From a virus: a stretch of DNA of 45,135 nucleotides. Location of the stretch: positions 1-45,135 of the IMG/VR virus record IMGVR_UViG_3300034069_000901; one strand, given 5' to 3'. Shown here piece after piece: positions 17,886-45,135 of this stretch. Position 1 is the first letter of the stretch. Each line of letters opens with the position of its first letter. The position numbers were made by a program, and so were the translations under genes. The notes below the pieces were generated by a model that saw nothing but the letters and a program-made list of their open reading frames with translations, was not told the origin of the DNA and made no database searches.

Positions 17886-18070
17886 ACACAAGCGCCCTGG
17901 CGATGGTCGCACCTGTTCGCATAAGCGAGGAAGGCGACCCGGTAGCAGCGGGCCGAGGCGACCGCGTCGTTCGCGGTGGCGTAGCCGGTCCGGTACACGA
18001 GAAGGCGGCCGGCGCCGGAAACCATGCTCCACCGCCAGCCGCCCGCCTCGTCTTGCTCGACTTCGATCAC
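17882..18070 (-). CDS. DUF1508 (YegP)-like single-domain protein, copy 1
   Basis: GTG at 18070 overlaps the methyltransferase stop as GTGA. IEVEQDEAGGWRWSMVSGAGRLLVYRTGYATANDAVASAR matches the DUF1508 core (G-x-W-R-W...G...GY). Confidence 0.6.
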   Translation of the reverse strand: MIEVEQDEAGGWRWSMVSGAGRLLVYRTGYATANDAVASARCYRVAFLAYANRCDHRQGACV

Positions 18071-18915
18071 GGCCGATAGTGCGCGGCGATCCACCGCGAA
18101 AGCGTGAGGGGTATTTTCGCGATGCGGGCGCTCGCGGCCTTGCGCGCCGATGTTGCGGTTGACGACGTGCGAGGCGACTTCCAACCAAAAGCGGCGGGGT
18201 GCGTACGATCATACCCGTCCGCCTCGTCGCGTCGCTTTCGACCGTCGTCACGGACGCCCTCGCCGATCGCCACGCCCCTGGCCGGGTTGCGAGCTGCTGA
18301 AGCGTTGCCCCGTGGATCGACCCCGAACCAACTCCCGCCGCTGTTCTTGAGCCCCTCAACGGCGGCCTGTTGAAAGCACGTCGACCGGCCGTCAAACCGG
18401 AAGCCAGGCACTTTGATCGCTTTGGCAATCGGCGGCATGAGAGCCGGTACGTCGCCCCACAGGTGGAACGAGCCATAATTCCAACGGCTACGACCGACCC
18501 ATGGGATCGCGCCCCGGACATTCTCGACAACCATGGGAATGTGGTGCCCGGCCGCCGCCGACGCCTCGCGCTGAATGCGAAAGCAGGCGTCGAACAACTT
18601 ATTTAGCTCGGCCAGCAAAGCGCCCGTCTCGTCAGCTCGAATGTCGGCAGCAATCGCCTTCGCCCGCGTCCACGGCATAGCCATATATGAATAACGCTGG
18701 CACGGGGGCGAGGCGACGATCAAAGCGGCGTCGACGAATTGCGCGCCGTTCACGGTAAGGACGTCCTGCAAGACAAGCTCGGCGGGATATCGCTCGTCGT
18801 CATAGACGTGCGCGTCGACGTCATAGCCGACGACGCGATATCCTTCGGCGAGGAGCCCCTCCGTCCAGCCACCGAGCCCGCAAAACAGGTCGATCGCCAA
18901 AGGCGCCGACGTCAC
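18067..18915 (-). CDS. DNA (cytosine-5) methyltransferase
   Basis: Motif I is AIDLFCGLGG, motif IV is SPPCQRYS and motif VI is VVENV. The track ORF starts at 18966, where the ATG has no SD. I prefer the GTG at 18915, which overlaps the stop of an upstream small ORF as GTGA. Confidence 0.88.
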   Translation of the reverse strand: MTSAPLAIDLFCGLGGWTEGLLAEGYRVVGYDVDAHVYDDERYPAELVLQDVLTVNGAQFVDAALIVASPPCQRYSYMAMPWTRAKAIAADIRADETGALLAELNKLFDACFRIQREASAAAGHHIPMVVENVRGAIPWVGRSRWNYGSFHLWGDVPALMPPIAKAIKVPGFRFDGRSTCFQQAAVEGLKNSGGSWFGVDPRGNASAARNPARGVAIGEGVRDDGRKRRDEADGYDRTHPAAFGWKSPRTSSTATSARKAASARIAKIPLTLSRWIAAHYRP

Positions 18916-19085
18916 GCGGCCGGTCGCCAAGCAACGATATCGTTGCGTTGGCCGCGTTGCGCCCAATCAGGATAAGCCGCATCGAAATGCGAAACCTCGA
19001 ACCCGTCACGGGTGCGAATATCAATCCGACCGATGGCCGAAGCTGGCCTGCGGTTGCAACGGTGGGGGCGAAAACGGCGGCTCAT
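18912..19085 (-). CDS. Small ORF (57 aa) translationally coupled to the C5 methyltransferase
   Basis: Not in the track. ATG at 19085 lies 7 nt after AGGAGG (19098-19093 on the minus strand). It encodes MSRRFRPHRCNRRPASAIGRIDIRTRDGFEVSHFDAAYPDWAQRGQRNDIVAWRPAA. Confidence 0.4.
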   Translation of the reverse strand: MSRRFRPHRCNRRPASAIGRIDIRTRDGFEVSHFDAAYPDWAQRGQRNDIVAWRPAA

Positions 19086-24374: not shown

Positions 24375-24850
24375 GATTAACGCCTTTACAGATTGGAAGC
24401 GCTGCCGAGCATTTGGTCGCCGCTGATCTATGGCTTCGCGGCCGTCATGTCGCAATGGCCCCGCAAGCATGTCCATATGATCTTATTGTTGAAATGGATA
24501 AGGGCTTAGTGCGCGTTCAAGTCAAGGCGACTGCCGAACCCCGGCGTTTACCAAATCGTGCAGGAGTTTATCCCGGTTATATCTGGCAAGTTCGTCGAGC
24601 CGGACGCAATCATGGGCTCGTCGGAGCACGTCGCATATACGCCCCTGGCGACTTTGATATTCTCGCCTTGGTCGCGCTCGACACCCGGCAAATCGCATAC
24701 CTTGAGCCAGAATTCGCATCTGTAACGATCCACATTCGATCAGGCGAAGGTGTTAAGCAGGGCAGAAGGGGCGGCGGTAAAAAGACAAGAACCTTTGCCG
24801 ACCACAGTTTTGATCGCGCTTTCGCGGAGTGGATCGCGAATGGCCAATAA
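24371..24850 (+). CDS. PD-(D/E)XK nuclease-fold protein (PDDEXK_5-like)
   Basis: GTGA overlap with the HTH gene. GSAAEHLVAADLWLRGRHV...PYDLIVEMDKGLVRVQVK gives the E...D...(Q)xK arrangement typical of small restriction-endonuclease-like proteins. Confidence 0.7.
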   Translation: MRLTPLQIGSAAEHLVAADLWLRGRHVAMAPQACPYDLIVEMDKGLVRVQVKATAEPRRLPNRAGVYPGYIWQVRRAGRNHGLVGARRIYAPGDFDILALVALDTRQIAYLEPEFASVTIHIRSGEGVKQGRRGGGKKTRTFADHSFDRAFAEWIANGQ

Positions 24851-25511
24851 GTATCAATCCGAGCAGTATGCACAGGATGAACACGGCTGGTATCGTGAGC
24901 CGCGCGACTGCGTCGACGCTATGTTCCGAGCAATCAGCTTTGATGAATGCCTAATTTGGGACCCGTGCTGTGGCATGGGCAACACGTTGGACGCCGCTAA
25001 AGCCATCGGGCTTGAAACAATTGGCTCCGATATCGTTGATCGCCACGCCCGACACAGCTTCTTTCGATCAAACTTTCTCACGGCGACCCGCTATCCTGTC
25101 GCGCCACGGATTGGCCTTGTTCTTAACCCCCCATACAACGCACCATCCGGCACGACCGAGAATTTTATAGCGAAAGCGTTCGACCTTGTTCCGTTCGAGC
25201 GCATGGCCGTTTTAGTGCCGTCTAATTTCCTGTTCGGCCAGACGCGCCGTGACGAATTGTTCGTCAAGCATACTCCGTCGCACATCCTGTTTCTATCGAA
25301 ACGTCCATCAATGCCGCCCGGAACCGAGGTCGACCGACTAGCGGCGACCGGCGATGCATTTCGCGGTGGAAAGCAGGATTTCGCGTGGCTGATTTTCACG
25401 GCTGGTGGTCCTTATCGGACCGAAGCCCGATGGCTTGATTGGCGTGAGCCTACACCCCCATCCGAGCGCCGTATCCGGCGCGGATCGCAACGGCCGAGCG
25501 CATCGGCATGA
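24840..25511 (+). CDS. DNA N6-adenine methyltransferase
   Basis: ATG at 24840 overlaps the upstream gene by 11 nt. The AdoMet motif is IWDPCCGMGNTLD and the catalytic motif is LVLNPPYN. Confidence 0.85.
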   Translation: MANKYQSEQYAQDEHGWYREPRDCVDAMFRAISFDECLIWDPCCGMGNTLDAAKAIGLETIGSDIVDRHARHSFFRSNFLTATRYPVAPRIGLVLNPPYNAPSGTTENFIAKAFDLVPFERMAVLVPSNFLFGQTRRDELFVKHTPSHILFLSKRPSMPPGTEVDRLAATGDAFRGGKQDFAWLIFTAGGPYRTEARWLDWREPTPPSERRIRRGSQRPSASA

Positions 25512-31937: not shown

Positions 31938-32459
31938 ATGGGCATCAACGATTACGAAATCCCGGAGGTTGAGGAGCTGGAACCGTGGGCACAGGGCTTG
32001 AAGCACCCTGATATCCAATTCGTCCGCGAGTTCTTGGTCGATTTCAAGGCCATGTCGGCCGCGATCCGATGCGGGTGGAACCCGGAGACGGCCAAGTCGA
32101 GCGCGACCCGCAAGTTGCGTCGCCCTGTCATCGCCCGAGCCGTGGCCCGCGCGATGCAGGACCGGGCCGAGGCGCTCAACATCACGGCGCGCACCGTTCT
32201 TTCCGAGGCATGGCATTGCTACATGGCATGCGTGGGCGAGGCGAAATGGGAGTCGGCCCACAAGTTCTTGGAGCTGATCGGCAAGCACGTCGACGTTCGC
32301 GCGTTCCGGGATCGCGTCGGCCTGCCCCATGATGACGACGTCCCCGCGTTGAATTATGACGCCCTCTCGACCGATGAAAAACGCCAGCTCCTCGCCCTCC
32401 ACGAACGAATTGGCGCTGCACCCGCTTCGCCTAATGGAGGGGCTTCGCGCCTCAATTGA
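31938..32459 (+). CDS. terS: Terminase small subunit (Terminase_2-like)
   Basis: FVREFLVDFKAMSAAIRCGWNPETAKSSATRKLRRPVIARAV matches the Terminase_2 HTH region. It lies directly upstream of TerL. Confidence 0.8.
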   Translation: MGINDYEIPEVEELEPWAQGLKHPDIQFVREFLVDFKAMSAAIRCGWNPETAKSSATRKLRRPVIARAVARAMQDRAEALNITARTVLSEAWHCYMACVGEAKWESAHKFLELIGKHVDVRAFRDRVGLPHDDDVPALNYDALSTDEKRQLLALHERIGAAPASPNGGASRLN

Positions 32460-34080
32460 GGCCGACGAACGGGCCGCACAGCAACGCAAGGTGATGAACC
32501 GGGCGTTGCAGGCGCGGGCATCGTTCGCCGAGTTCTGCCGGACCATCGAAATCCCCGGCGCTCCGGTCGACGAGCAAGACGAGAACCTCGACGCGGCCGG
32601 CCCGGCATCCGAGAAGCCGCTCGCGGCGCACCATCAATTGTTGTGCGACAAGCTCCAGCTCGTGGAGTCCGGCGCGATTCGCCGCATGATGGTATTCATG
32701 CCGCCCGGCTCGGCCAAATCCACCTATGCCAGCGTCCTGTTCCCGGCGTGGTTCATGGGCCGGGAGCGGCGCCGCAACGTGATCGTGGCGACCTATGCAA
32801 GCCCGCTCGGCAAGAAGATCGGGCGGCGCATGCGATCCGTGATCCGGCAAGGCGCATATCGCCAGATATTCGGGATCGGATTGAGCGCGGAGTCGAGCGC
32901 GGCGGACCAATTCGCCCTCACGAACGAAAACGAAATGATGGCGGGTGGCATCCTGTCCGGCATCACGGGCAACCGTGCCGACCTGATCGTGATTGACGAC
33001 CCGATCAAGGGACGGCGTGACGCCGAAAGCGCCACGGTCCGCGAAAGCACGAGGTCCGAGTTTCGGGACAGCATCATGACGCGCGGCAAGCCCGGATTCC
33101 GCGTTCTCCTCATTCAAACCCGGTGGCACGAGGCCGACCTTGCCGGCGGCATCCTGCCCGAGGACTATGACGGCGAATCCGGTCCAATCCTGTGTCGGGA
33201 CGGGGAGACGTGGGAGGTCGTGAACCTGCCCGCCGAGGCGGAGCGCGCCGACGATCCGCTCGGCCGGCGGAAAGGCGAAATGCTGTGGCCCGAGTGGTTC
33301 CCGGCCAGCCATTGGGCGCCGTTCCGCAAGACGGCCAGGACGTGGGCCTCCCTGTTTCAGCAGCGCCCCACCCCGGCCGAGGGCGGCTTGTTCAAGCGGG
33401 CGTGGTTCACGGGCAAGATTATCGCGCCGGACAAGCTGCCCACGCGCTTCATGTCGCGGTGCCGGGCGTGGGACCTCGCCGCGACCGAGGCGACGTCGGG
33501 CGACGATCCGGATTGGACCGCCGGCATTCGCATGGCTCGGGACGGACCCGATTACTATATCGAGCATGTCGAGCGCATGCGTCGATCCGCGGCCGACGTC
33601 CGGACCGCGTTGAAGGAGAACGCCGAAACCGATCCGGTCGGTACAACGATCCGCTTGCCACAGGACCCCGGCCAAGCCGGCGTGGATCAGGCGGACAGTC
33701 TGATTAAATTCCTGGCCGGCTACGCGGTTCGGGTCGTGCGGCCCACGGGCAGCAAGGCCATTCGCGCCGAGCCCTTCGCGACGCAATGCGAGAACGGCAA
33801 CGTCTATCTCGTGCGCGGTCCATGGAACGACGCCTTTCTCGACGAGCTGTGTTCCTTCCCGAGCGCGGCCCACGACGATCAGGTCGACGCGGCGGCCGAC
33901 GCGTTCAATGAGCTGGCGCTCCGCGAGCATGTCCCGTTCTCGTCGCAAAGCGAGGGCCGCCGCGAAACCCTTACCCCCGATCGTGACAGGCGCGGCGAGT
34001 TGGACGATAAGCCGGCGGACAGCGGTCGGGGCTTCGGCTCGGTCCGCTCCCTATCGGCTGGCCAAGGGATCGCGTTCTAA
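32434..34080 (+). CDS. terL: Terminase large subunit (ATPase plus RNaseH-like nuclease)
   Basis: Walker A is MPPGSAKST, Walker B is LIVIDDP, and QTRWHEADL follows. The C-terminal nuclease motif is AAHDDQVDAAADAF. The start is uncertain: the track gives 32356, and I chose the ATG at 32434, which overlaps terS by 26 nt. Confidence 0.85.
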   Translation: MEGLRASIEADERAAQQRKVMNRALQARASFAEFCRTIEIPGAPVDEQDENLDAAGPASEKPLAAHHQLLCDKLQLVESGAIRRMMVFMPPGSAKSTYASVLFPAWFMGRERRRNVIVATYASPLGKKIGRRMRSVIRQGAYRQIFGIGLSAESSAADQFALTNENEMMAGGILSGITGNRADLIVIDDPIKGRRDAESATVRESTRSEFRDSIMTRGKPGFRVLLIQTRWHEADLAGGILPEDYDGESGPILCRDGETWEVVNLPAEAERADDPLGRRKGEMLWPEWFPASHWAPFRKTARTWASLFQQRPTPAEGGLFKRAWFTGKIIAPDKLPTRFMSRCRAWDLAATEATSGDDPDWTAGIRMARDGPDYYIEHVERMRRSAADVRTALKENAETDPVGTTIRLPQDPGQAGVDQADSLIKFLAGYAVRVVRPTGSKAIRAEPFATQCENGNVYLVRGPWNDAFLDELCSFPSAAHDDQVDAAADAFNELALREHVPFSSQSEGRRETLTPDRDRRGELDDKPADSGRGFGSVRSLSAGQGIAF

Positions 34081-36311
34081 TGCCCACCCCCACGGACTAT
34101 ATCAGGGCGGCGCAAGGCCGTATCTCAACGGCCCAAGGTCCGGCCACGCTCAACGCCTATTCGCCCAATCTGCCCGGTCCCGCGGCGCCGGACGAACAGG
34201 CGGTCGGCCCGATGCGCGAGGCCAGCCCGGAGGACGCCGCCGCCCTGCCACGCCCCGGCATGGTGACGCGCTCCGGTGACGTGACGTGGATACCTGGCCA
34301 ATGGCTCAAGACGCTGGCCGGCAACCCCGACACGATCCTCGCCAAGGACGGATCAGGGCTCAAGCTATTCGAGGCGCTTCTCGACGACGACGTCGCGTTC
34401 TCGACGCTTCAACAGCGCCGCTTGGCCATCACGTCGCGGGATTGGGAGGTCGCACCGGGTGACGATACCGACCCGCGCTCGGTCAAGGCCGCGGATCAGC
34501 TCCGCGCCATGATAAAGGCGGTGGGATGGGACCGCGTAACCGGACTCATGCACTATGGCGTATGGTTCGGCTACGCCGTCGGCGAGTGCATATGGACGAC
34601 GAAACAGCACAACGGCGAGCTGATCGTATGGCTCGACGACGTCGTTGTCCCGGATCGGCGATGGTTCGGCTTCACCCTTGAGGGTGAATTGCGGATGCTC
34701 GGGACGCTCAACGCATCGGTCAACGGCGAGGAGCTTCCGCCCAACAAGTTTTGGACGATCCGGACCGGCGGGACGCATGATTTTGCGTTCTACGGCATGG
34801 GGCTCGCGCATTGGGTCTATTGGCTCGTTTTCTTCAAGCGCGCCGCGATCAAGTTTTGGGCGCTGTACCTCGAAAAGCTCGGCATGCCGACCGTGGCAAT
34901 CGAGTTCCCCTCGGCCGAGAAGAACGACAAGCAAGCGCAGGCCGACCGTCTCCAAGCCGCGGCGGCGGTGGGCCAGGACCGGGCCGTTCTCGTGCCGGAG
35001 GGCACCCTCACGAACGACCAAATGAAGCTCCTTGAGGCGACGCGATCCGCGGCCGGGACGTCGGGCTATGCCGAGTTCATCGACGAACAGAACGAGTCGA
35101 TCATGCGCGTCGTGTTGGGCCAGCCCGGCACGTCGAAAGGCGTGTCGTCCGGCCTCAACTCGGATCAGGCCTCGGAACACGCGGGGGTCAAGGCCGAAAT
35201 CGTCAAGGCCGACTCCGACCTCATGACGGAGGCGTTCGCGCGCGGTCCGGCCAAGTGGTTGACCCGGTGGAACCATGGCCCCGACGTCGCCCCGCCGACC
35301 CTGTACCGCGTCCTCGACAATGCGGAGGACCTCAACACGATCGCGGATCGCGACGTCAAGCTCGCCGGCATTGGGATCAAGCGCACCAAGGATAGCGTGG
35401 GCGACGTCTATGGCGACGGATACGAAATCGCCCCGACCCCGCCCAAGGCCGGCAACAAGCAAATCGCGGCGGCGCTCGGCGGCGCGATCGACCCGGAAAC
35501 CGGCACGATCATCCCGGAGGCCGTACCCGCGGCGAACGACAACGCGAAGCGGGTCGCGGCCTTCGCGGCCGAGTATGGCGTCGACGACACGGCGCCGCTC
35601 TATGTGTCGCGCCAGCTCCTCAACGCGGCCGACCTGATCGCGTGGGCCAAGGGCCAGGGCTTCAAGGTGACGGTCCCGGCGGCCGATATGCACGTCACCA
35701 TCCTGTATTCGAAACAGCCGGTGGATTGGTTCGGCATGGGCCAGCCGTGGAGCGACGACGATCAGGGTCGGACCATCGTGCCGCCCGGTGGGCCGCGCGC
35801 GGTGGAGCAATTCGGCGAGGGTGCCGTCGTTCTCCGCTTCGCCTCCGCCGACCTGCAATGGCGCCATGACAGCATGGTCGAACGGGGCGCGTCCCACGAT
35901 TTCGATAGCTACTCGCCCCATGTGACGATCAGCTATGACGCGGAGGGCGTCGACCTGTCCAAGGTGGAGCCCTACCAGGGCGAGCTGCGGTTCGGACCCG
36001 AGATATTCGAGCCGATTCGGACCGGCGAGGCGTTCGACCCGGCCACGCTCAATTTCACGGCCGATCAGGAACAAGCGATCGAACGGTTGGTCAAGGCGCT
36101 CGTCGAGGACGCCAACCCCGTGTTCGCCGCCATGGCCGACGAGTTGCGGACCGGGTTGCAGGGCGTAAACAGCTTGGAAGGCGCCCGCGTCGCGATTCTT
36201 GAGGCGTGGGAGCGCATGCCGATCGACAAGCTCGCGCGCTTGACCGGCCTGCCCATGCTGGCCGAGCGCGTCGGCGCCCTGGCCGGCGCGGAGGAGGACG
36301 TCACGGCATGA
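34080..36311 (+). CDS. Portal protein, Mu gp29 / DUF935-like, with an inserted 2H-phosphoesterase-like domain
   Basis: TAATG overlap with terL. 743 aa. The DUF935-like core includes LKLFEALLDDDVAFSTLQQRRLAI and FWALYLEKLGMPTV. The typical C-terminal tail is ADQEQAIERLV...LARLTGLPMLAERVGA. An extra segment of about 145 aa carries two HVTI motifs. Confidence 0.9.
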   Translation: MPTPTDYIRAAQGRISTAQGPATLNAYSPNLPGPAAPDEQAVGPMREASPEDAAALPRPGMVTRSGDVTWIPGQWLKTLAGNPDTILAKDGSGLKLFEALLDDDVAFSTLQQRRLAITSRDWEVAPGDDTDPRSVKAADQLRAMIKAVGWDRVTGLMHYGVWFGYAVGECIWTTKQHNGELIVWLDDVVVPDRRWFGFTLEGELRMLGTLNASVNGEELPPNKFWTIRTGGTHDFAFYGMGLAHWVYWLVFFKRAAIKFWALYLEKLGMPTVAIEFPSAEKNDKQAQADRLQAAAAVGQDRAVLVPEGTLTNDQMKLLEATRSAAGTSGYAEFIDEQNESIMRVVLGQPGTSKGVSSGLNSDQASEHAGVKAEIVKADSDLMTEAFARGPAKWLTRWNHGPDVAPPTLYRVLDNAEDLNTIADRDVKLAGIGIKRTKDSVGDVYGDGYEIAPTPPKAGNKQIAAALGGAIDPETGTIIPEAVPAANDNAKRVAAFAAEYGVDDTAPLYVSRQLLNAADLIAWAKGQGFKVTVPAADMHVTILYSKQPVDWFGMGQPWSDDDQGRTIVPPGGPRAVEQFGEGAVVLRFASADLQWRHDSMVERGASHDFDSYSPHVTISYDAEGVDLSKVEPYQGELRFGPEIFEPIRTGEAFDPATLNFTADQEQAIERLVKALVEDANPVFAAMADELRTGLQGVNSLEGARVAILEAWERMPIDKLARLTGLPMLAERVGALAGAEEDVTA
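35590..36020 (+). other. 2H-phosphoesterase-like domain embedded in the portal ORF
   Basis: MHVTILYS (His codon 35691-35693) and PHVTISYD (His codon 35919-35921) lie 76 residues apart. Each follows a hydrophobic strand (PLYVSRQL; AVVLRFAS). Confidence 0.6.
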
Positions 36312-36450
36312 ACGCCCGGCGCGCATGGGCCGAGCATTTCGGCGCTTTGCTCGCCGCATTGTTCGACCGGATCGGACCGCGTTAATCCTGTTGCACAGGC
36401 TCGCGGTTCGTGGTTCAAACCGCAACCGCATCACGCGGAGGGAGCGAGCC

Positions 36451-36621
36451 ATGTCGGATTTCAAGAAGGGCGAGAAGGTCGTCGGCACCACGACCAAGGG
36501 CAAGAAGGTTTCGGGCTCGGTCGAACACGTCCGGAGCGTCCAGCGCGGCAAGTTCGTCGACGTCAAGGACGCGGACGGCAACCTCCATTCGTTCCGCCCT
36601 TCCCAGGTCGTCAAGGCCTGA
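36451..36621 (+). CDS. Small basic SH3/Tudor-like protein (56 aa; DUF2945-like by recollection)
   Basis: ATG at 36451 after GGAGGGAG. It encodes MSDFKKGEKVVGTTTKGKKVSGSVEHVRSVQRGKFVDVKDADGNLHSFRPSQVVKA. Confidence 0.55.
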   Translation: MSDFKKGEKVVGTTTKGKKVSGSVEHVRSVQRGKFVDVKDADGNLHSFRPSQVVKA

Positions 36622-36658: not shown

Positions 36659-36690
36659 ACGCCCGCCGATGGAAGTTGGCGGGCGTTTTC
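36659..36690 (+). terminator. Rho-independent terminator
   Basis: ACGCCCGCC (36659-36667) pairs with GGCGGGCGT (36678-36686): a 9-bp stem with a 10-nt loop, then TTTTC. A second hairpin lies at 36628-36650. Confidence 0.6.
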
Positions 36691-37102
36691 ATGCCTGCTA
36701 TAGATTGCGAATGGCAGGACGAAACAGCAAGCCCGAACCCTGGTACGAACAAGGCCCTTGCGTGGTTTGCCAAGAAAGACTGCAAACCCGCCGCGGCATT
36801 CGCGATGGTCGCCCGGTTTATCAATCCATATGTGGACGATGTAATCGGCTTCGGCACCCCGCACCGGAAAGCCAAGTGCGATCTTGGAAAGAGCGGCCAC
36901 ATCGGAGAGCATTGAAAGAGGCTTGCGAACGGTGCGCCTTTGTACCCGAGGATAAGTGCCAACTTGATATAGACCACCGGGACGGTAATCGGCACAATAA
37001 CGAACCGGCGAATTTGCAGACGCTATGCGCTAACTGCCATCGCCTGAAAACCAAACTCGCTGGTGACAACAAGACTCGTTATTGAGCGCGGCGGGCGTTT
37101 TC
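36678..37102 (+). mobile_element. Candidate HNH homing-endonuclease cassette bounded by 13-bp direct repeats
   Basis: GGCGGGCGTTTTC occurs at 36678-36690 (the 3' arm and U-tract of the terminator) and again at 37090-37102 without a 5' arm. The AT-richer HNH ORF lies exactly between the two copies. Confidence 0.35.
36711..37085 (+). CDS. HNH endonuclease
   Basis: ATG at 36711. Cys pairs (CVVCQ, CGRCN) are followed by DIDHRDGNRHNNEPANLQTLCANCHRLKT, the HNH motif. Confidence 0.8.
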   Translation: MAGRNSKPEPWYEQGPCVVCQERLQTRRGIRDGRPVYQSICGRCNRLRHPAPESQVRSWKERPHRRALKEACERCAFVPEDKCQLDIDHRDGNRHNNEPANLQTLCANCHRLKTKLAGDNKTRY

Positions 37103-37370
37103 GTTTCGGGCATTGCATACGCGTTGCAGCGATGGCATGAGGGCGGCGGGGCGAACCTCTTGCGGTCCTATTCACGCAAGCCCTTGAAGGTTCCGGGTGA
37201 TGCCGGCCGACGCTTGAAACGGACCCGGAGCCATCCAGCCGGCAATGGGATGGGGGAACGCCTACCTAGGCGTGACAGCCGGAGAGGACGGAAGCCGAGC
37301 GGGATGGTGGGCGGTAGGCGGCCCGACGCGGACTCTCTCCGTAGCCATCCCGACCAACAGGGAGTCAGTC

Positions 37371-37787
37371 ATGATCCATTGTCGCACCGTCCTTGCCCTC
37401 GCCGCCGCCGTCGCGCTCGTGGGTTGCGCCACCAGCTCGGCCCCGCCCGCCAGCGCCGGCAGCATGGCCGCCACCGCGCCCACCACCACCACGCCCGCGC
37501 TGGCCAAGGCCGGACAGGTCGTCGTCAAGGCGAGCGAAGCCTTGAAGCTGGCCGACGCCGCGTATCAGGCCGCGGTGCCGATCGCCGAGGGGCTGATTTC
37601 GGCCGGCATCATTTCGCCCGGCGAAGCGATCATGGTTCGCGATATCGAGTCGCGCGCGTCACAGGCGCTCGCCACGGCCCACGCCGCGCTATCCGTCGCC
37701 GAGCAGGCGCAGGCGGTGGCGCAGGCCGTCACGGCCATCAACACCTTGACGACGATCGCGCCCGCGGCCACAACCATCAATCATTGA
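37371..37787 (+). CDS. Lipoprotein (138 aa)
   Basis: ATG at 37371 after GGGAG. The signal peptide with lipobox is MIHCRTVLALAAAVALVGC. The mature part is Ala-rich and helical. Confidence 0.7.
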   Translation: MIHCRTVLALAAAVALVGCATSSAPPASAGSMAATAPTTTTPALAKAGQVVVKASEALKLADAAYQAAVPIAEGLISAGIISPGEAIMVRDIESRASQALATAHAALSVAEQAQAVAQAVTAINTLTTIAPAATTINH

Positions 37788-38220
37788 ATCCCGTAGCGAA
37801 AGCCAAGGGTTGATCCGCCGAGCCATAGAGGTGCGAAGCGGGGACCGAAGCGAGTAGGGAGCGGGGAGGTTGGCGGTTCCTCCCATGCTCCGGCTGTCCG
37901 CTAGACTACCGGGAGGGCGCGCGGACGCGGCGAGCCCCGTAGAACGGAATGGCCGCAAGGCCCGACCTCCCGACCAAGTTTAGGGCCGCCCGCCTCACTT
38001 GAAGGGGTCTATCCCCCGGAGAGAGATAGGGGCAACGGTTGGGATGGCCCAAGGGCGGGTGGCGAGGCGGTGGACCGACCGCGCACCACCCGCCCAACCC
38101 TGGAGTACCCGCCAAATCCGACGCGATCGTCGGGACAGGATATGCGGGGAACGTCGCTCGGCTAGGGCAACAGGCGCGGCTCCGCTGGAAACGGCGGGGC
38201 CGTTCGCGTATCTGGCCCCT
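37788..38220 (+). ncRNA. ORF-free, helix-rich region: candidate structured RNA, class unknown
   Basis: No credible ORF in six frames. Hairpins: 37864-37884; GGCC-GCAA-GGCC at 37951-37962; a 10-bp plus 5-bp nested stem at 38053-38095; 38118-38133; and a 10-bp stem with a GAAA loop at 38178-38201. Long-range pairs are 37910-37916 with 37966-37972 and 37817-37823 with 38156-38162. Confidence 0.35.
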
Positions 38221-39087
38221 ATGTGCCGACGCCCGATCCTGTTCGACGCCGCTGATCGTCCGCCGCGCCAGCTCCTCCCGCTACAGGTCGGCGCGAAGGA
38301 TATCGAGGAATGGCTCCTCGCTAAGAGTCCGACCGCAATCGGCGCGTACAACACGATCGGCGCGGAGGAATATGCCCGGTCGTTCACCGCGGCCCAAACC
38401 GCCGGCACAGATATTGCCGACGACCTATATTTCGGGATCGTGGACGTCGTCGGCCGAGGTGGCACGGAACAAGACTTCTCGCGCCTTGTCACGCCGATCC
38501 TCAAGTCCAAGGGATGGCTCGGGGGCGACGATCGCGCCATCGCGACACGGGTGGCCCTGATCTATGACACAAACCTCCGCTTGGCCCGCGCCGCGGGACG
38601 GTGGAACAGGTATCAGGCCAGCAAGAGCGGATTGCCCTACGTTCGCGGCGTCACGGCCGAGGACGAACGGGTCCGCCACCCGCCCAAGAGCCCGTTGAGC
38701 GACCATCGCGCGTTCGACGGGATCATTCTGCCCCTCGACCATCCGTTCGTGGCCAAATACTGGACCCCGCTCGGCTTCCGGTGCCGGTGCCAATGGATAC
38801 AGATGACGCGGTCGCAGCTCGCGCGCTATCCCGGCGGGATCACGTCCGAAGCGGACCTCGCCGAGCGCGAGAAGCGACTAGGGCCACCCGTGTTCGCCTC
38901 GCCCGCCGCCCCGATCAAGTCGCAGCTCGCCAGCATGGTCGACGCGACCAACGCGGAGCGCATGCCCGGCATGCCGGCGGTGGACCCCGTCGCGGCGGAA
39001 CAGGCCGGCACGTCGGCATGGCTCAACGTGATCGGCGCCGAAATCGGATCAAGCGTCGGCGAGGCGCTCGCGCGCTTGTTTGGCTGA
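38221..39087 (+). CDS. Head morphogenesis protein, Mu gp30 (MuF) / SPP1 gp7-like
   Basis: ATG at 38221, in frame with track ORF 37999..39087. ARSFTAAQTAGTDIADDL, IYDTNLRLARAAGRW and VRHPPKSPLSDHRAFDGIILPLDHPFVAKYWTPLGFRCRCQ are the MuF signature. Confidence 0.85.
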   Translation: MCRRPILFDAADRPPRQLLPLQVGAKDIEEWLLAKSPTAIGAYNTIGAEEYARSFTAAQTAGTDIADDLYFGIVDVVGRGGTEQDFSRLVTPILKSKGWLGGDDRAIATRVALIYDTNLRLARAAGRWNRYQASKSGLPYVRGVTAEDERVRHPPKSPLSDHRAFDGIILPLDHPFVAKYWTPLGFRCRCQWIQMTRSQLARYPGGITSEADLAEREKRLGPPVFASPAAPIKSQLASMVDATNAERMPGMPAVDPVAAEQAGTSAWLNVIGAEIGSSVGEALARLFG

Positions 39088-42595: not shown

Positions 42596-43603
42596 ATGGC
42601 GAAGGAAATCGAGCTAGAGGTTTTCCGGGTGGGCGGACCGGCTTCGCGGTTCGTCACGGCGGAGCATATCGCGGAGGTCGCCCGGCACGATTGCGAGGCG
42701 CATCCCGTGCCCGTCTGTTTCGGCCATCCCAAGAGCGACACTCCGGCGGCCGGCACGATCAGCAAGCTTCGCGCCGATGGCAACTCCCTTTTCGCCACGG
42801 TCAAGAGCTTTACCGACAAGGCAATCGACGGGATCAAGAACGGCGAATGGATCAATCGTTCCTTCGCGTTCTTCGATCCGACGCACGAGGCCAACCCGAC
42901 GCGCGGCAAATGGGCGCCGCGTCATCTTGGCTTGCTCGGCGGCGCCGCGCCCGGCATTCCCGGCATGGGATCGCTGCAAAAGGCGCTGGCGTTCGACGCG
43001 GCCGAGGATGCCGTCACGGTCGACGGCGACCCGGCGGACGCCGTCATCTATGCCGGCAAGCCGACCCCCGTTCATTTCATCGCGGAACCCGAGGAGAAAC
43101 CCGCCGTGGCCGACAAAACCCCCGAGCAGATCGCCGACGAGAACCGTCTCGCCGAGGAGCGCCGCCAGTTCCAGGCCGAGCGTGACGCCTTCGCCGCGGC
43201 ACAGACGCGCCAGTTCGAAGGCGCCAACGCGACGTCCGTGGACGCGCTCGTCGCGGCGGGCCGCGTCCTCCCGGCCGAGGCCGCCAGCCTCAAGCTCGTG
43301 TTCAACGCGCTCGGCCGCGACGAGCTGGAGTTCGGCGCCGCGGACAAGTCGGACAAGGCCACCCCGGCGGCCAAGCTCGTCGCGTTCATCACGGGCGCGA
43401 TCGGCAACAAGCGTGTCCCGGTCGACGAGCCGCGCCGCTCCCCCTCGGGCGAGTTCACGGCCACGGGCCAGGACAAGGACGGCAAGGTGACGGTGGGAAG
43501 CCTCACCGCGGCGGCCCGCAAGCTTATGAAGGAGGATTCGAGCCTCACGTTCGAAGCCGCCATGGATCAGGTATCGAACGGCGGCGAGGCCGGCGTCGAG
43601 TAA
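42596..43603 (+). CDS. Prohead protease / scaffolding protein (Mu gpI or P2 gpO-like)
   Basis: The N-terminal half (EVFRVGG...PVCFGHPKSDTPAAGTISKLRADGNSLFATVKSFTDKAIDGIKNGEWINRSFAFF) has the pattern of the gpI/gpO families. The C-terminal half is an Ala/Glu-rich coiled-coil, as in scaffolds. Confidence 0.8.
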   Translation: MAKEIELEVFRVGGPASRFVTAEHIAEVARHDCEAHPVPVCFGHPKSDTPAAGTISKLRADGNSLFATVKSFTDKAIDGIKNGEWINRSFAFFDPTHEANPTRGKWAPRHLGLLGGAAPGIPGMGSLQKALAFDAAEDAVTVDGDPADAVIYAGKPTPVHFIAEPEEKPAVADKTPEQIADENRLAEERRQFQAERDAFAAAQTRQFEGANATSVDALVAAGRVLPAEAASLKLVFNALGRDELEFGAADKSDKATPAAKLVAFITGAIGNKRVPVDEPRRSPSGEFTATGQDKDGKVTVGSLTAAARKLMKEDSSLTFEAAMDQVSNGGEAGVE

Positions 43604-44035: not shown

Positions 44036-45016
44036 ATGGCCCAGGCCCCATTCGTCATTACCCCCGCCCTCGTCGCCATCGCGATCGACTATCAGGGGGT
44101 CAACGCCCGTGTCCGCGGCTATGTGCAGGACCAAGTCGCGCCGCGTATCCGCGTCGACGGCCCCCTGTTCAAGTATCCGGTTTACAACATCAACGAAGCG
44201 TTCACGGTCGTCGACAATCAGATCGACCGGCTCGGCCGAGCAAATGAGCTTGGCTATACCGCGGGCGAGCAGACCGGCGCGACGATCGACTATGCGCTCC
44301 GGGAGCCGGTGCCGTACCGCGACGAGGCGGCGGCGCGTAATGGCACCATCCCGTTCCCGCTCCGCGCCCGTGCGGTCCGCAACGTGATCGACAAGAATCA
44401 GCTCAACCGCGAGATTCGCGTCGCCGCGATGGCCATGTCCGCCAGCTCCTATTCGGCCGGCTACATCACGGACCTTGCCGGCGGCACGAAATGGTCGGAC
44501 TACAATAATTCCGATCCCGTGGCGCAGATCGTCGACGCGCAAGCCGGCATGCTGATCCCCGGCAACGTGGGTGTGACGTCCAAGCGCGTCGCCAATATCC
44601 TCCGGCGCCATCCCAAGGTGGCCGTGGCGCTCGGCGGTTCGCTCAACTCGGGTCGCTACTATCCGCTCGACGAGGTCGCGACGGTCCTCGGCCTCGACCG
44701 TATCGTCGTCGGCAACACGCTCAAGCAGACGAGCAAGCGGGGCCAGGCCCTCACGACGGGCAATATCTGGCCCGACTCGTTCGCGATCCACTACCAGGGT
44801 CCGACCGGGCCGGACGGGCTCGGTGTGGACGTGGCCTCGCCCAACTTCCTCACGACGTTCCAATGGGGCGACGTCGTTTCGAGCGAGACGACGTTCGATC
44901 CGGGCGACCTCGGCCTGTGGGGCGGCGTCAAGGTCCTCACGGGCGAGAGCATCGTGGAGAAGGCGGTCGCACCGTTCGCGGGCTACCTGTTCGCCAACGT
45001 CCTCGCCGCGCAGTAA
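44036..45016 (+). CDS. Major capsid protein (HK97 fold; lambda gpE-like family by recollection)
   Basis: 326 aa, following the protease/scaffold and DUF2190 genes. Its last 22 nt lie inside the terminal repeat. Confidence 0.88.
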   Translation: MAQAPFVITPALVAIAIDYQGVNARVRGYVQDQVAPRIRVDGPLFKYPVYNINEAFTVVDNQIDRLGRANELGYTAGEQTGATIDYALREPVPYRDEAAARNGTIPFPLRARAVRNVIDKNQLNREIRVAAMAMSASSYSAGYITDLAGGTKWSDYNNSDPVAQIVDAQAGMLIPGNVGVTSKRVANILRRHPKVAVALGGSLNSGRYYPLDEVATVLGLDRIVVGNTLKQTSKRGQALTTGNIWPDSFAIHYQGPTGPDGLGVDVASPNFLTTFQWGDVVSSETTFDPGDLGLWGGVKVLTGESIVEKAVAPFAGYLFANVLAAQ

Positions 45017-45135
45017 CCGCATGCGGGCGGCTCCGGCCGCCCCAATCTGGAGTTCGCTTCATGGTCGATCGTCCCAAGCTTTACGCCCAATTCGAGGGCG
45101 ACGAAATCGACGGCAAGGTTTACAGCCTTGGCGAC
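44995..45135. repeat. Direct terminal repeat (right copy), identical to 1-141
   Basis: Same base-by-base comparison as for the left copy. Confidence 0.95.
45025..45042 (+). other. GC hairpin just after the capsid stop (also at 31-48)
   Basis: GGGCGGC-TCCG-GCCGCCC forms a 7-bp stem with a 4-nt loop, 9 nt after the TAA. There is no U-tract. It may stabilise or attenuate the transcript. Confidence 0.3.

Follow-up and report, generated by a model that had tools for sequence, protein, structure and literature searches.

The DNA analysed here is a 45,135-nt stretch of a viral genome (IMG/VR record IMGVR_UViG_3300034069_000901, positions 1 to 45,135), in the following referred to as the window, and the gene of interest in it encodes a Mu-type portal protein that carries an Acb1-family 2H phosphoesterase domain between its core and its C-terminal tail. 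An initial annotation, prepared without database searches, had described a 743-amino acid (aa) open reading frame (ORF) at 34080..36311 with two HVTI motifs whose His codons, at 35691 and 35919, lie 76 residues apart. On translation these statements proved exact: the reading frame is free of internal stops, and the motifs occupy aa 538-541 (His codon 35691-35693) and aa 614-617 (His codon 35919-35921). The gene consists of the following parts:

34080..36311, + strand: portal gene, 743 aa, with Mu-type core, linker, Acb1 domain and C-terminal tail (ORF and translation, Pfam, Foldseek)
34362..35414, + strand: Portal_Mu (PF06074/DUF935) core, aa 95-445 (Pfam, E 4.7e-72)
35415..35588, + strand: low-complexity linker, predicted to be disordered, aa 446-503 (model confidence; gapped, variable alignment)
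35589..36029, + strand: Acb1-family 2H phosphoesterase domain, aa 504-650 (Pfam, AlphaFold2, Foldseek, BFVD)
35691..35699, + strand: predicted first catalytic motif, H538-V-T540, corresponding to H44/T46 of T4 Acb1 (alignment, conservation)
35919..35927, + strand: predicted second catalytic motif, H614-V-T616, corresponding to H113/T115 of T4 Acb1 (alignment, conservation)
36054..36311, + strand: conserved C-terminal helical tail, aa 659-743 (alignment with relatives lacking the insert)

The Pfam profile Portal_Mu matched the core with 243.6 bits against a cut-off of 23.9, and a portal family was also assigned to it in PHROGs. In a full-length structure model the core reached values of the predicted local distance difference test (pLDDT) of mostly 80-97, and the portals of JBD30 (8rka, E 4e-17) and Mu (9khx, E 2.8e-14) were the top Foldseek matches, which agrees with the DUF935/Mu gp29-like core proposed initially. 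Downstream of the core, the linker is disordered in the model at aa 445-489, with pLDDT below 50 at aa 453-460, 466-470 and 475-489, and it includes a short helix at aa 488-499. The tail starts at F659, a residue invariant in the homologue alignment, and its helices (aa 661-734) were modelled with moderate confidence.

The segment between linker and tail is an Acb1-family 2H phosphoesterase domain. With 137.6 bits against a cut-off of 27 (E 3.3e-40), the Pfam profile Acb1 (PF23474) matched aa 506-647 over profile positions 2-138 of 144, nearly the same residues as the span singled out initially (35590-36020, aa 504-647), and PF23474 is also listed for the portal protein in precomputed Pfam annotation. 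The insert further matched phrog_755 as well as the C-terminal part of the portal family phrog_146. Sequence searches of the PDB recovered the C-terminus of the Pam3 portal (8hds, E 1.9e-30) and the crystallised Acb1 7t26; in a PDB profile search, the latter was matched over chain residues 3-143 of 144 (E 4.7e-19). An AlphaFold2 model of aa 494-662 (mean pLDDT 91.2, predicted template modelling score 0.82) retrieved the Acb1 of Erwinia phage FBB1 first (7t26, E 2e-8, template modelling score 0.71 normalised to the target) in a Foldseek search of the PDB, followed by 7t27 and the Acb1 of Burkholderia phage BCSR5 (9q2y/9q2g), for which no paper was found in our literature search. LigT, AKAP18, a plant cyclic phosphodiesterase (CPDase) and the 2',5'-phosphodiesterases of coronavirus and rotavirus came below Acb1 in the same list, and among the predicted viral structures of BFVD the best matches carry the name Acb1. 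Two other 2H profiles of Pfam stayed below their cut-offs on the insert, namely LigT_PEase (E 0.038, 14.6 bits vs 23.3) and 2_5_RNA_ligase2 (E 0.0027-0.038, 18.2 bits vs 27). The number of H-x-[TS] motifs in the portal (3 seen vs ~1.0 expected from composition) is uninformative by itself, so the case is built on the profile match, motif conservation and fold, and a chance occurrence of the motifs was set aside through the profile and fold evidence.

Hobbs et al. 2022 (PMC9117128) characterise Acb1 by the catalytic tetrad H44/T46/H113/T115, by four aromatic residues that stack (Y12, W74, F107 and W147), by E141, which contacts the adenine, and by a lid at the C-terminus. Aligning the window domain at the sequence level with T4 Acb1, taken from the T4 record, and with FBB1 Acb1 gave the following correspondence:

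T4 Acb1 Y12: Y508 in the window portal
T4 Acb1 H44: H538
T4 Acb1 T46: T540
T4 Acb1 W74: A574, beside a six-residue, clade-specific insertion that contains GGPR
T4 Acb1 F107: F608
T4 Acb1 H113: H614
T4 Acb1 T115: T616
T4 Acb1 E141: E644
T4 Acb1 W147, in the lid: without counterpart

The prediction that both histidines are conserved held among 114 homologues of 43-66% overall identity. H538 and T540 are each kept in 112 of them, H614 in all 114 and a Thr or Ser at position 616 in 113, and both HxT motifs are intact in approximately 111. G570, G571 and R573 are invariant in this set, likewise Y508, R511, D549 and E641, and the lid Trp is present in 11 of the 114. This conservation suggests that the Acb1-family domain of the portal is very probably active as an enzyme. 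That the 2H assignment and its relation to Acb1 had been called correctly from the bare letters, and now stand on the profile, fold and HxT/HxT evidence, deserves mention.

The domain is a true insertion. Six relatives with portals of 562-570 aa (P0083, P0085, P0088, P0093, P0096 and P0118), whose cores are about 60% identical, lack the insert, and in the alignment their core is joined directly to the same 85-aa helical tail; since the tail is kept in relatives without the domain, the segment is, as had been supposed at the outset, a separable module and not a common part of DUF935 portals. The insert is flanked by disordered linkers, and in all 118 domain-bearing Mu-type homologues 87-106 residues follow the domain. 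Its G+C content and its G+C content at third codon positions (GC3) equal those of the remaining portal gene. We placed 315 domain sequences in a rough neighbour-joining tree, midpoint-rooted and without support values, in which 112 of the 118 Mu-type domains form one nearly pure clade, and the domains fused to Phage_portal_3 are thoroughly interleaved with the standalone ones. A recent horizontal gain of the insert was ruled out by the match in G+C and GC3 with the gene and by a domain tree that tracks the portal clade. The pattern suggests that in the Mu-type portal clade one old insertion into the flexible C-terminal arm took place essentially once, and that fusion and fission at the portal end have been frequent in the Phage_portal_3 family. 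In three ORFs, P0121 (249 aa), P0161 and P0181, the portal core is missing and only the Acb1 domain and the tail of the Mu-type portals are encoded, which might reflect portal genes split in two, gene calls that are too short or frameshifts in the assemblies.

The architecture is widespread. A search with the whole portal protein yielded 212 homologues, and in 114 of the best 120 clusters, mostly from contigs of 40-55 kb, the pair PF06074 and PF23474 is precomputed. We also compared a profile of the standalone homologues with 1.84 billion cluster representatives (clusters at 50% identity) and obtained 3,710 matching clusters at E <=0.001, 2,160 at E <=1e-10 and 1,192 at E <=1e-30. From the best 150 clusters, every second of 146 representatives was scanned with Pfam, and 61 of the 73 proteins sampled in this way are fused to a portal (Phage_portal_3 53, Portal_Mu 6, Phage_portal 2). 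In the subfamily closest to the window domain, portal fusion is therefore the usual form across three portal families, as far as this sample of 73 goes. Some of the sampled proteins additionally contain ADP-ribosyltransferase, Zeta-toxin, PBECR3 nuclease or XkdF protease domains. In P0207, P0231, P0233, P0239 and others (800-1,469 aa), the Acb1 domain lies in the middle of the chain, with ADP-ribosyltransferase, Zeta-toxin, PBECR3 or other domains behind it; judged by this predicted layout, such long chains are multi-effector portal proteins.

In phiPSA1, RHEph04, Erebus and Pam3, all of them cultured phages, the annotated portal ends with the domain. The window portal was not covered to 80% or more by any cultured phage of the collection, so the Mu-type internal form is metagenomic so far. 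Of 80 Mu-like portal loci from bacterial genomes, one contains the domain, a prophage in a Sphingomonas metagenome-assembled genome in which it is likewise internal; at 42% identity this prophage is too distant for a host assignment, which we rejected. Standalone homologues with 55-71% identity to the window domain adjoin portal genes. In Synechococcus phage Yong-M3-232 (OM868076.1), for example, the standalone Acb1 gene (L001:1593-2144; 183 aa, 63% identity with the domain of the window) comes immediately after the portal gene, with whose 3' end it shares 26 nt in another frame, and lies ahead of the minor capsid gene.

Fusions of this kind have been described before. Iyer et al. reported 2H domains fused to MuF or portal domains and proposed an RNase role or the degradation of defence nucleotides (Iyer et al. 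2017, PMC5512222), and later that such fusions are probably packaged and injected against oligonucleotide signalling (Iyer et al. 2022, PMC9503650). The belief stated in the initial annotation that an enzymatic insertion in a portal was unknown is therefore not tenable: the two surveys describe it, phrog_146 contains the domain and the fusion is abundant. The portal-2H architecture is already described and very common, and the window adds a further, uncultured member; the finding overturns nothing and provides a well-identified member of a known architecture. Our literature search found no paper that describes the portal fusion under the name Acb1, and neither the Acb1 discovery paper (Hobbs 2022, PMC9117128) nor the Pam3 structure paper mentions it. 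Portals of this type deserve to be flagged in annotation as carriers of an anti-defence domain.

To our knowledge, studies of Acb1 have been confined to the small free protein found in T4-like phages. The window domain shares with the Acb1 of T4 (gene 57B) and of FBB1 (PF23474; 7T26/7T27) the family, the 2H fold, the HxT/HxT tetrad and the equivalents of Y12, F107 and E141. It is only about 25% identical to them and is part of a 743-aa structural protein, whereas T4/FBB1 Acb1 is a free protein of 152 aa; it has A574 in place of W74 next to the GGPR insertion, and its lid region, in which the Trp is missing, runs into linker and tail. The portals of Pam3 (gp3, PDB 8HDS), phiPSA1 (gp44), RHEph04 (gp10) and Aminobacter phage Erebus carry portal-fused domains from this Acb1 subfamily, with 37-56% identity to that of the window. 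However, these portals belong to the Phage_portal_3/DUF1073 group and have the domain at the very C-terminus, with at most 25 residues following it in 88 of 118 members of the group, whereas the window portal is Mu-type and has it internally, followed by the 85-aa tail; by the same rough tree, fused and standalone forms are interleaved in that group, in contrast to the nearly monophyletic Mu-type insertion. For Pam3, a cryo-EM map of the virion is available. The deposited chain sequence of Pam3 gp3 (621 aa) includes the Acb1-like region at aa 470-613, and 8hds was not among the Foldseek matches of the window domain model. From this absence, the Pam3 Acb1 domain seems to be unmodelled in the 8HDS coordinates, being flexible or removed.

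With the 2H-portal and 2H-MuF 'polyvalent proteins' of Iyer et al. (PMC5512222, PMC9503650), the window portal shares the architecture class, a conflict-related enzymatic domain joined to a portal in one polypeptide in late-gene context, as well as the proposed degradation of defence signals after packaging. These surveys are computational, contain no analysis of the Mu-type clade with internal insertion, predate or do not use the Acb1 assignment, and took an RNase role into account as well. Among solved portals, Mu gp29 (gpH; 9KHX) and JBD30 (8RKA) are closest in fold, and the order terminase-portal-MuF is shared with them; residues 97-464 of the window portal align with residues 65-428 of Mu gp29, which has no enzyme domain. 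Comparing the window tail with the C-terminus of Mu gp29 by BLAST and with a hidden Markov model of the tail gave nothing significant, only 'EDDIDRM' vs 'EEDAIDRL' at a comparable position (E ~0.1-1), and homology of the tail with the C-terminus shed by Mu gp29 was set aside as unproven. The Acb2/Tad1 sponges (PF24729) counter the same class of signalling defences, but have an unrelated fold, sequester the signal instead of hydrolysing it and are encoded by separate small genes.

The portal gene lies in a head module with the order small terminase, large terminase, portal, variable gap, MuF, head maturation protease and major head protein. Its neighbours are:

32356..34080, + strand: terminase large subunit, directly upstream, its stop overlapping the portal start (phrog_38, E 2.9e-98)
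36325-36621: 98-aa ORF in the portal-MuF gap, without family match
36669-37085, + strand: HNH endonuclease gene inside the head module, in the portal-MuF gap (Pfam HNH, E 1.8e-5; several PHROG HNH families)
37245-37787, + strand: ORF with a lipoprotein-like signal (LALAAAVALVGCATSS, lipobox LVGC), without family match
37999..39087, + strand: MuF-like minor head protein, the downstream edge of the variable portal-MuF gap (phrog_220, E 3.7e-36; Pfam Phage_Mu_F, E 1.1e-7)
42596..43603, + strand: head maturation protease (phrog_976, E 2.5e-36)

By analogy with Mu, we regard the head maturation protease at 42596..43603 as a candidate for cutting the C-terminal arm of the portal. The portal-MuF gap is variable in the six relatives without the insert, too. 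In two of them (P0083 and P0088, on contigs L008 and L009), the portal is followed directly by a gene for an 81-aa protein with an Acb2/Tad1 hairpin domain (L008:7055-7300 and L009:5516-5761; PF24729, 66.9 bits vs cut-off 27, E 1.8e-18), and in the remaining four small unannotated ORFs follow directly. The gap thus seems to be a preferred site for counter-defence genes directed at cyclic-nucleotide signalling, and since two unrelated tools against cyclic nucleotides occur at the same spot in sister phages, it lends independent contextual support to an anti-signalling role.

We assign a probability of roughly 70% to the reading that the insert is an Acb1 enzyme with an anti-signalling role. The domain is translated as part of the portal polypeptide and hence produced together with the late head proteins, at the stage when defences of the type of the cyclic-oligonucleotide-based anti-phage signalling system (CBASS) fire. 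With respect to substrate and site of action, we infer the following. By analogy with T4 and FBB1 Acb1, the tetrad H538/T540 and H614/T616 would most likely hydrolyse 3'-5' cyclic di- and trinucleotide immune signals independently of metal, and such hydrolysis would keep the cell from being killed by the effector until the progeny are complete. In T4 infection, Acb1 activity sets in at approximately 15 min, coinciding with the late start of CBASS (PMC9117128), and a prohead protease can activate CBASS (preprint PMC12991175). Such timing, together with the standalone homologues and the sponge at the same locus, points to action in the producing cell, where the domain could work from the unassembled or assembled portal or after the arm has been cut off; that the main benefit arises there is a tentative placement, to which we give somewhat less than an even chance. 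Copies enclosed in the head might also reach the next host and add to the benefit, for which we see distinctly lower odds. Action in the producing cell and delivery with the DNA are compatible and do not exclude each other, and the architecture raises the question whether anti-CBASS enzymes are packed in advance and delivered with the genome or simply made alongside the head proteins by which CBASS is triggered.

Several observations weigh against this assignment of enzyme and role. The C-terminal side of a portal faces the capsid interior, so a domain on the assembled portal would be shielded from the cytoplasm. Two of the nine residues highlighted for T4/FBB1 Acb1, W74 and W147, are not conserved in the window. 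With A574 in place of W74 and without the lid Trp, the binding pocket of the portal Acb1 may differ from that of T4 Acb1 and so may its substrate range, and the altered pocket, including the GGPR insertion, might suit a signal other than those cleaved by T4 Acb1. Furthermore, three of the 114 homologues have the domain with one or both motifs damaged: P0024 reads QVTE for HVTx, P0050 HVII for HVTI, and P0119 RLVL and HIVI for the two motifs. These could be inactive variants or sequencing errors.

A more specific account would make the portal a cargo loader. The head protease would cut the disordered linker, at most 12 fragments of Acb1, or of Acb1 plus tail, would be caught inside the capsid and leave it with the DNA, and the enzyme would be present in the next host before any phage gene expression. 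The initial annotation had placed 12 copies in position for DNA ejection; a domain still joined covalently to the portal would stay behind in the capsid, and its delivery would require release by proteolysis, for which Mu offers a plausible analogy. The cargo account is a sub-mechanism of the anti-signalling reading and does not contradict it; we consider it possible but less likely than not. Its precedent is Mu, where the virion structure lacks the C-terminal 124 residues of gp29, removed or invisible, a loss that the authors attribute to protease I (PMC11915804). Because the alignment of the window portal with Mu gp29 ends at window residue 464, linker, Acb1 domain and tail fall into the part that Mu sheds. 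Delivery with the DNA is further suggested by the disorder of the linker in the model and a head maturation protease encoded in the window, by the ADP-ribosyltransferase, Zeta-toxin or PBECR3 nuclease domains, typical injected effectors, that follow Acb1 in other portal proteins, and by the Pam3 portal, whose Acb1 part is 37% identical in sequence and still not among the coordinate matches, although flexibility could explain the missing density as well as release. Iyer et al. put forward the same mechanism (PMC5512222, PMC9503650), and CBASS inhibition has been reported for a virion ejection protein. However, only 12 copies would be delivered per virion, CBASS signals late in infection when newly made protein would be far more abundant, it is not obvious how the standalone homologues or the sponge of Acb2 type at this locus could be packaged, and the standalone Acb1 of phage G was not found in the phage G virion proteome. 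Taking the idea one step further, portals of the Mu type and others could serve as a metering device, in which the arm shed by the protease loads exactly 12 anti-CBASS copies per capsid that are ejected together with the DNA. This version is doubtful; if true, the phage would arrive already armed against cyclic-oligonucleotide signalling.

Two other explanations concern the activity itself. The domain could act on RNA, either healing 2',3'-cyclic phosphate ends made by anticodon nucleases in the manner of LigT/CPDase, as had been considered initially, or serving as an injected RNase effector comparable to Usb1, which was also suggested for 2H fusions (Iyer et al. 2017, PMC5512222). Enzymes of this sort are known in the 2H superfamily, PHROG 755 carries the annotation 'RNA ligase', LigT structures rank behind Acb1 among the Foldseek matches, other portal and MuF fusions have PBECR nucleases at this position, and the missing W74 and lid Trp could mean a different substrate. 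Yet LigT_PEase (E 0.038) and 2_5_RNA_ligase2 remained below their cut-offs compared with E 3e-40 for Acb1, the adenine-contacting Glu (E644) and the stacking Y508 and F608 are kept, the window ORFs that were scanned, not exhaustively, included no RNA ligase or polynucleotide kinase, and these 2H versions were never seen associated with RNA ligases (Iyer et al. 2017, PMC5512222). An RNA-directed role is therefore improbable, and the end-healing variant is disfavoured. Lower still, and very improbable in our view, ranks a structural or decaying passenger whose activity is no longer relevant and which could, as a spacer at the crown of the portal, influence assembly or the packaging of DNA. An old, vertically inherited insertion and the persistence of the domain in P0024, P0050 and P0119 would fit such a passenger; on the other hand, the catalytic His and Thr residues are kept in 112-114 of 114 homologues at 43-66% identity, many other residues of the active-site region are invariant, and close relatives thrive without the domain, so it is not needed for portal function. 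The Acb1 enzyme directed against cyclic-nucleotide signals thus remains our preferred explanation.

The ends of the window overlap exactly over 141 bp (1-141 = 44995-45135), so it represents a circularly assembled, complete phage genome of 44,994 bp, with a G+C content of approximately 64%. Outside the head module, we annotated three further features:

18067-18966, - strand: DNA methyltransferase gene (PHROG 363/799, given for the two methyltransferase genes together)
24750-25511, + strand: DNA methyltransferase gene (PHROG 363/799, as above)
~19.9-23.7 kb, - strand: recombination module with AAA_24, PDDEXK/DUF3799 and AAA_23

The two DNA methyltransferases possibly serve anti-restriction. For the ORF at 37245-37787 in the portal-MuF gap, an internal Met near 37371 is the probable start, and its product may be a phage lipoprotein encoded in the variable gap. 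Finally, on L008, one of the two contigs with an Acb2/Tad1 hairpin protein behind the portal, the terminase large subunit (L008:2649-5327) contains an intein (Pfam Intein_splicing together with Terminase_6C).

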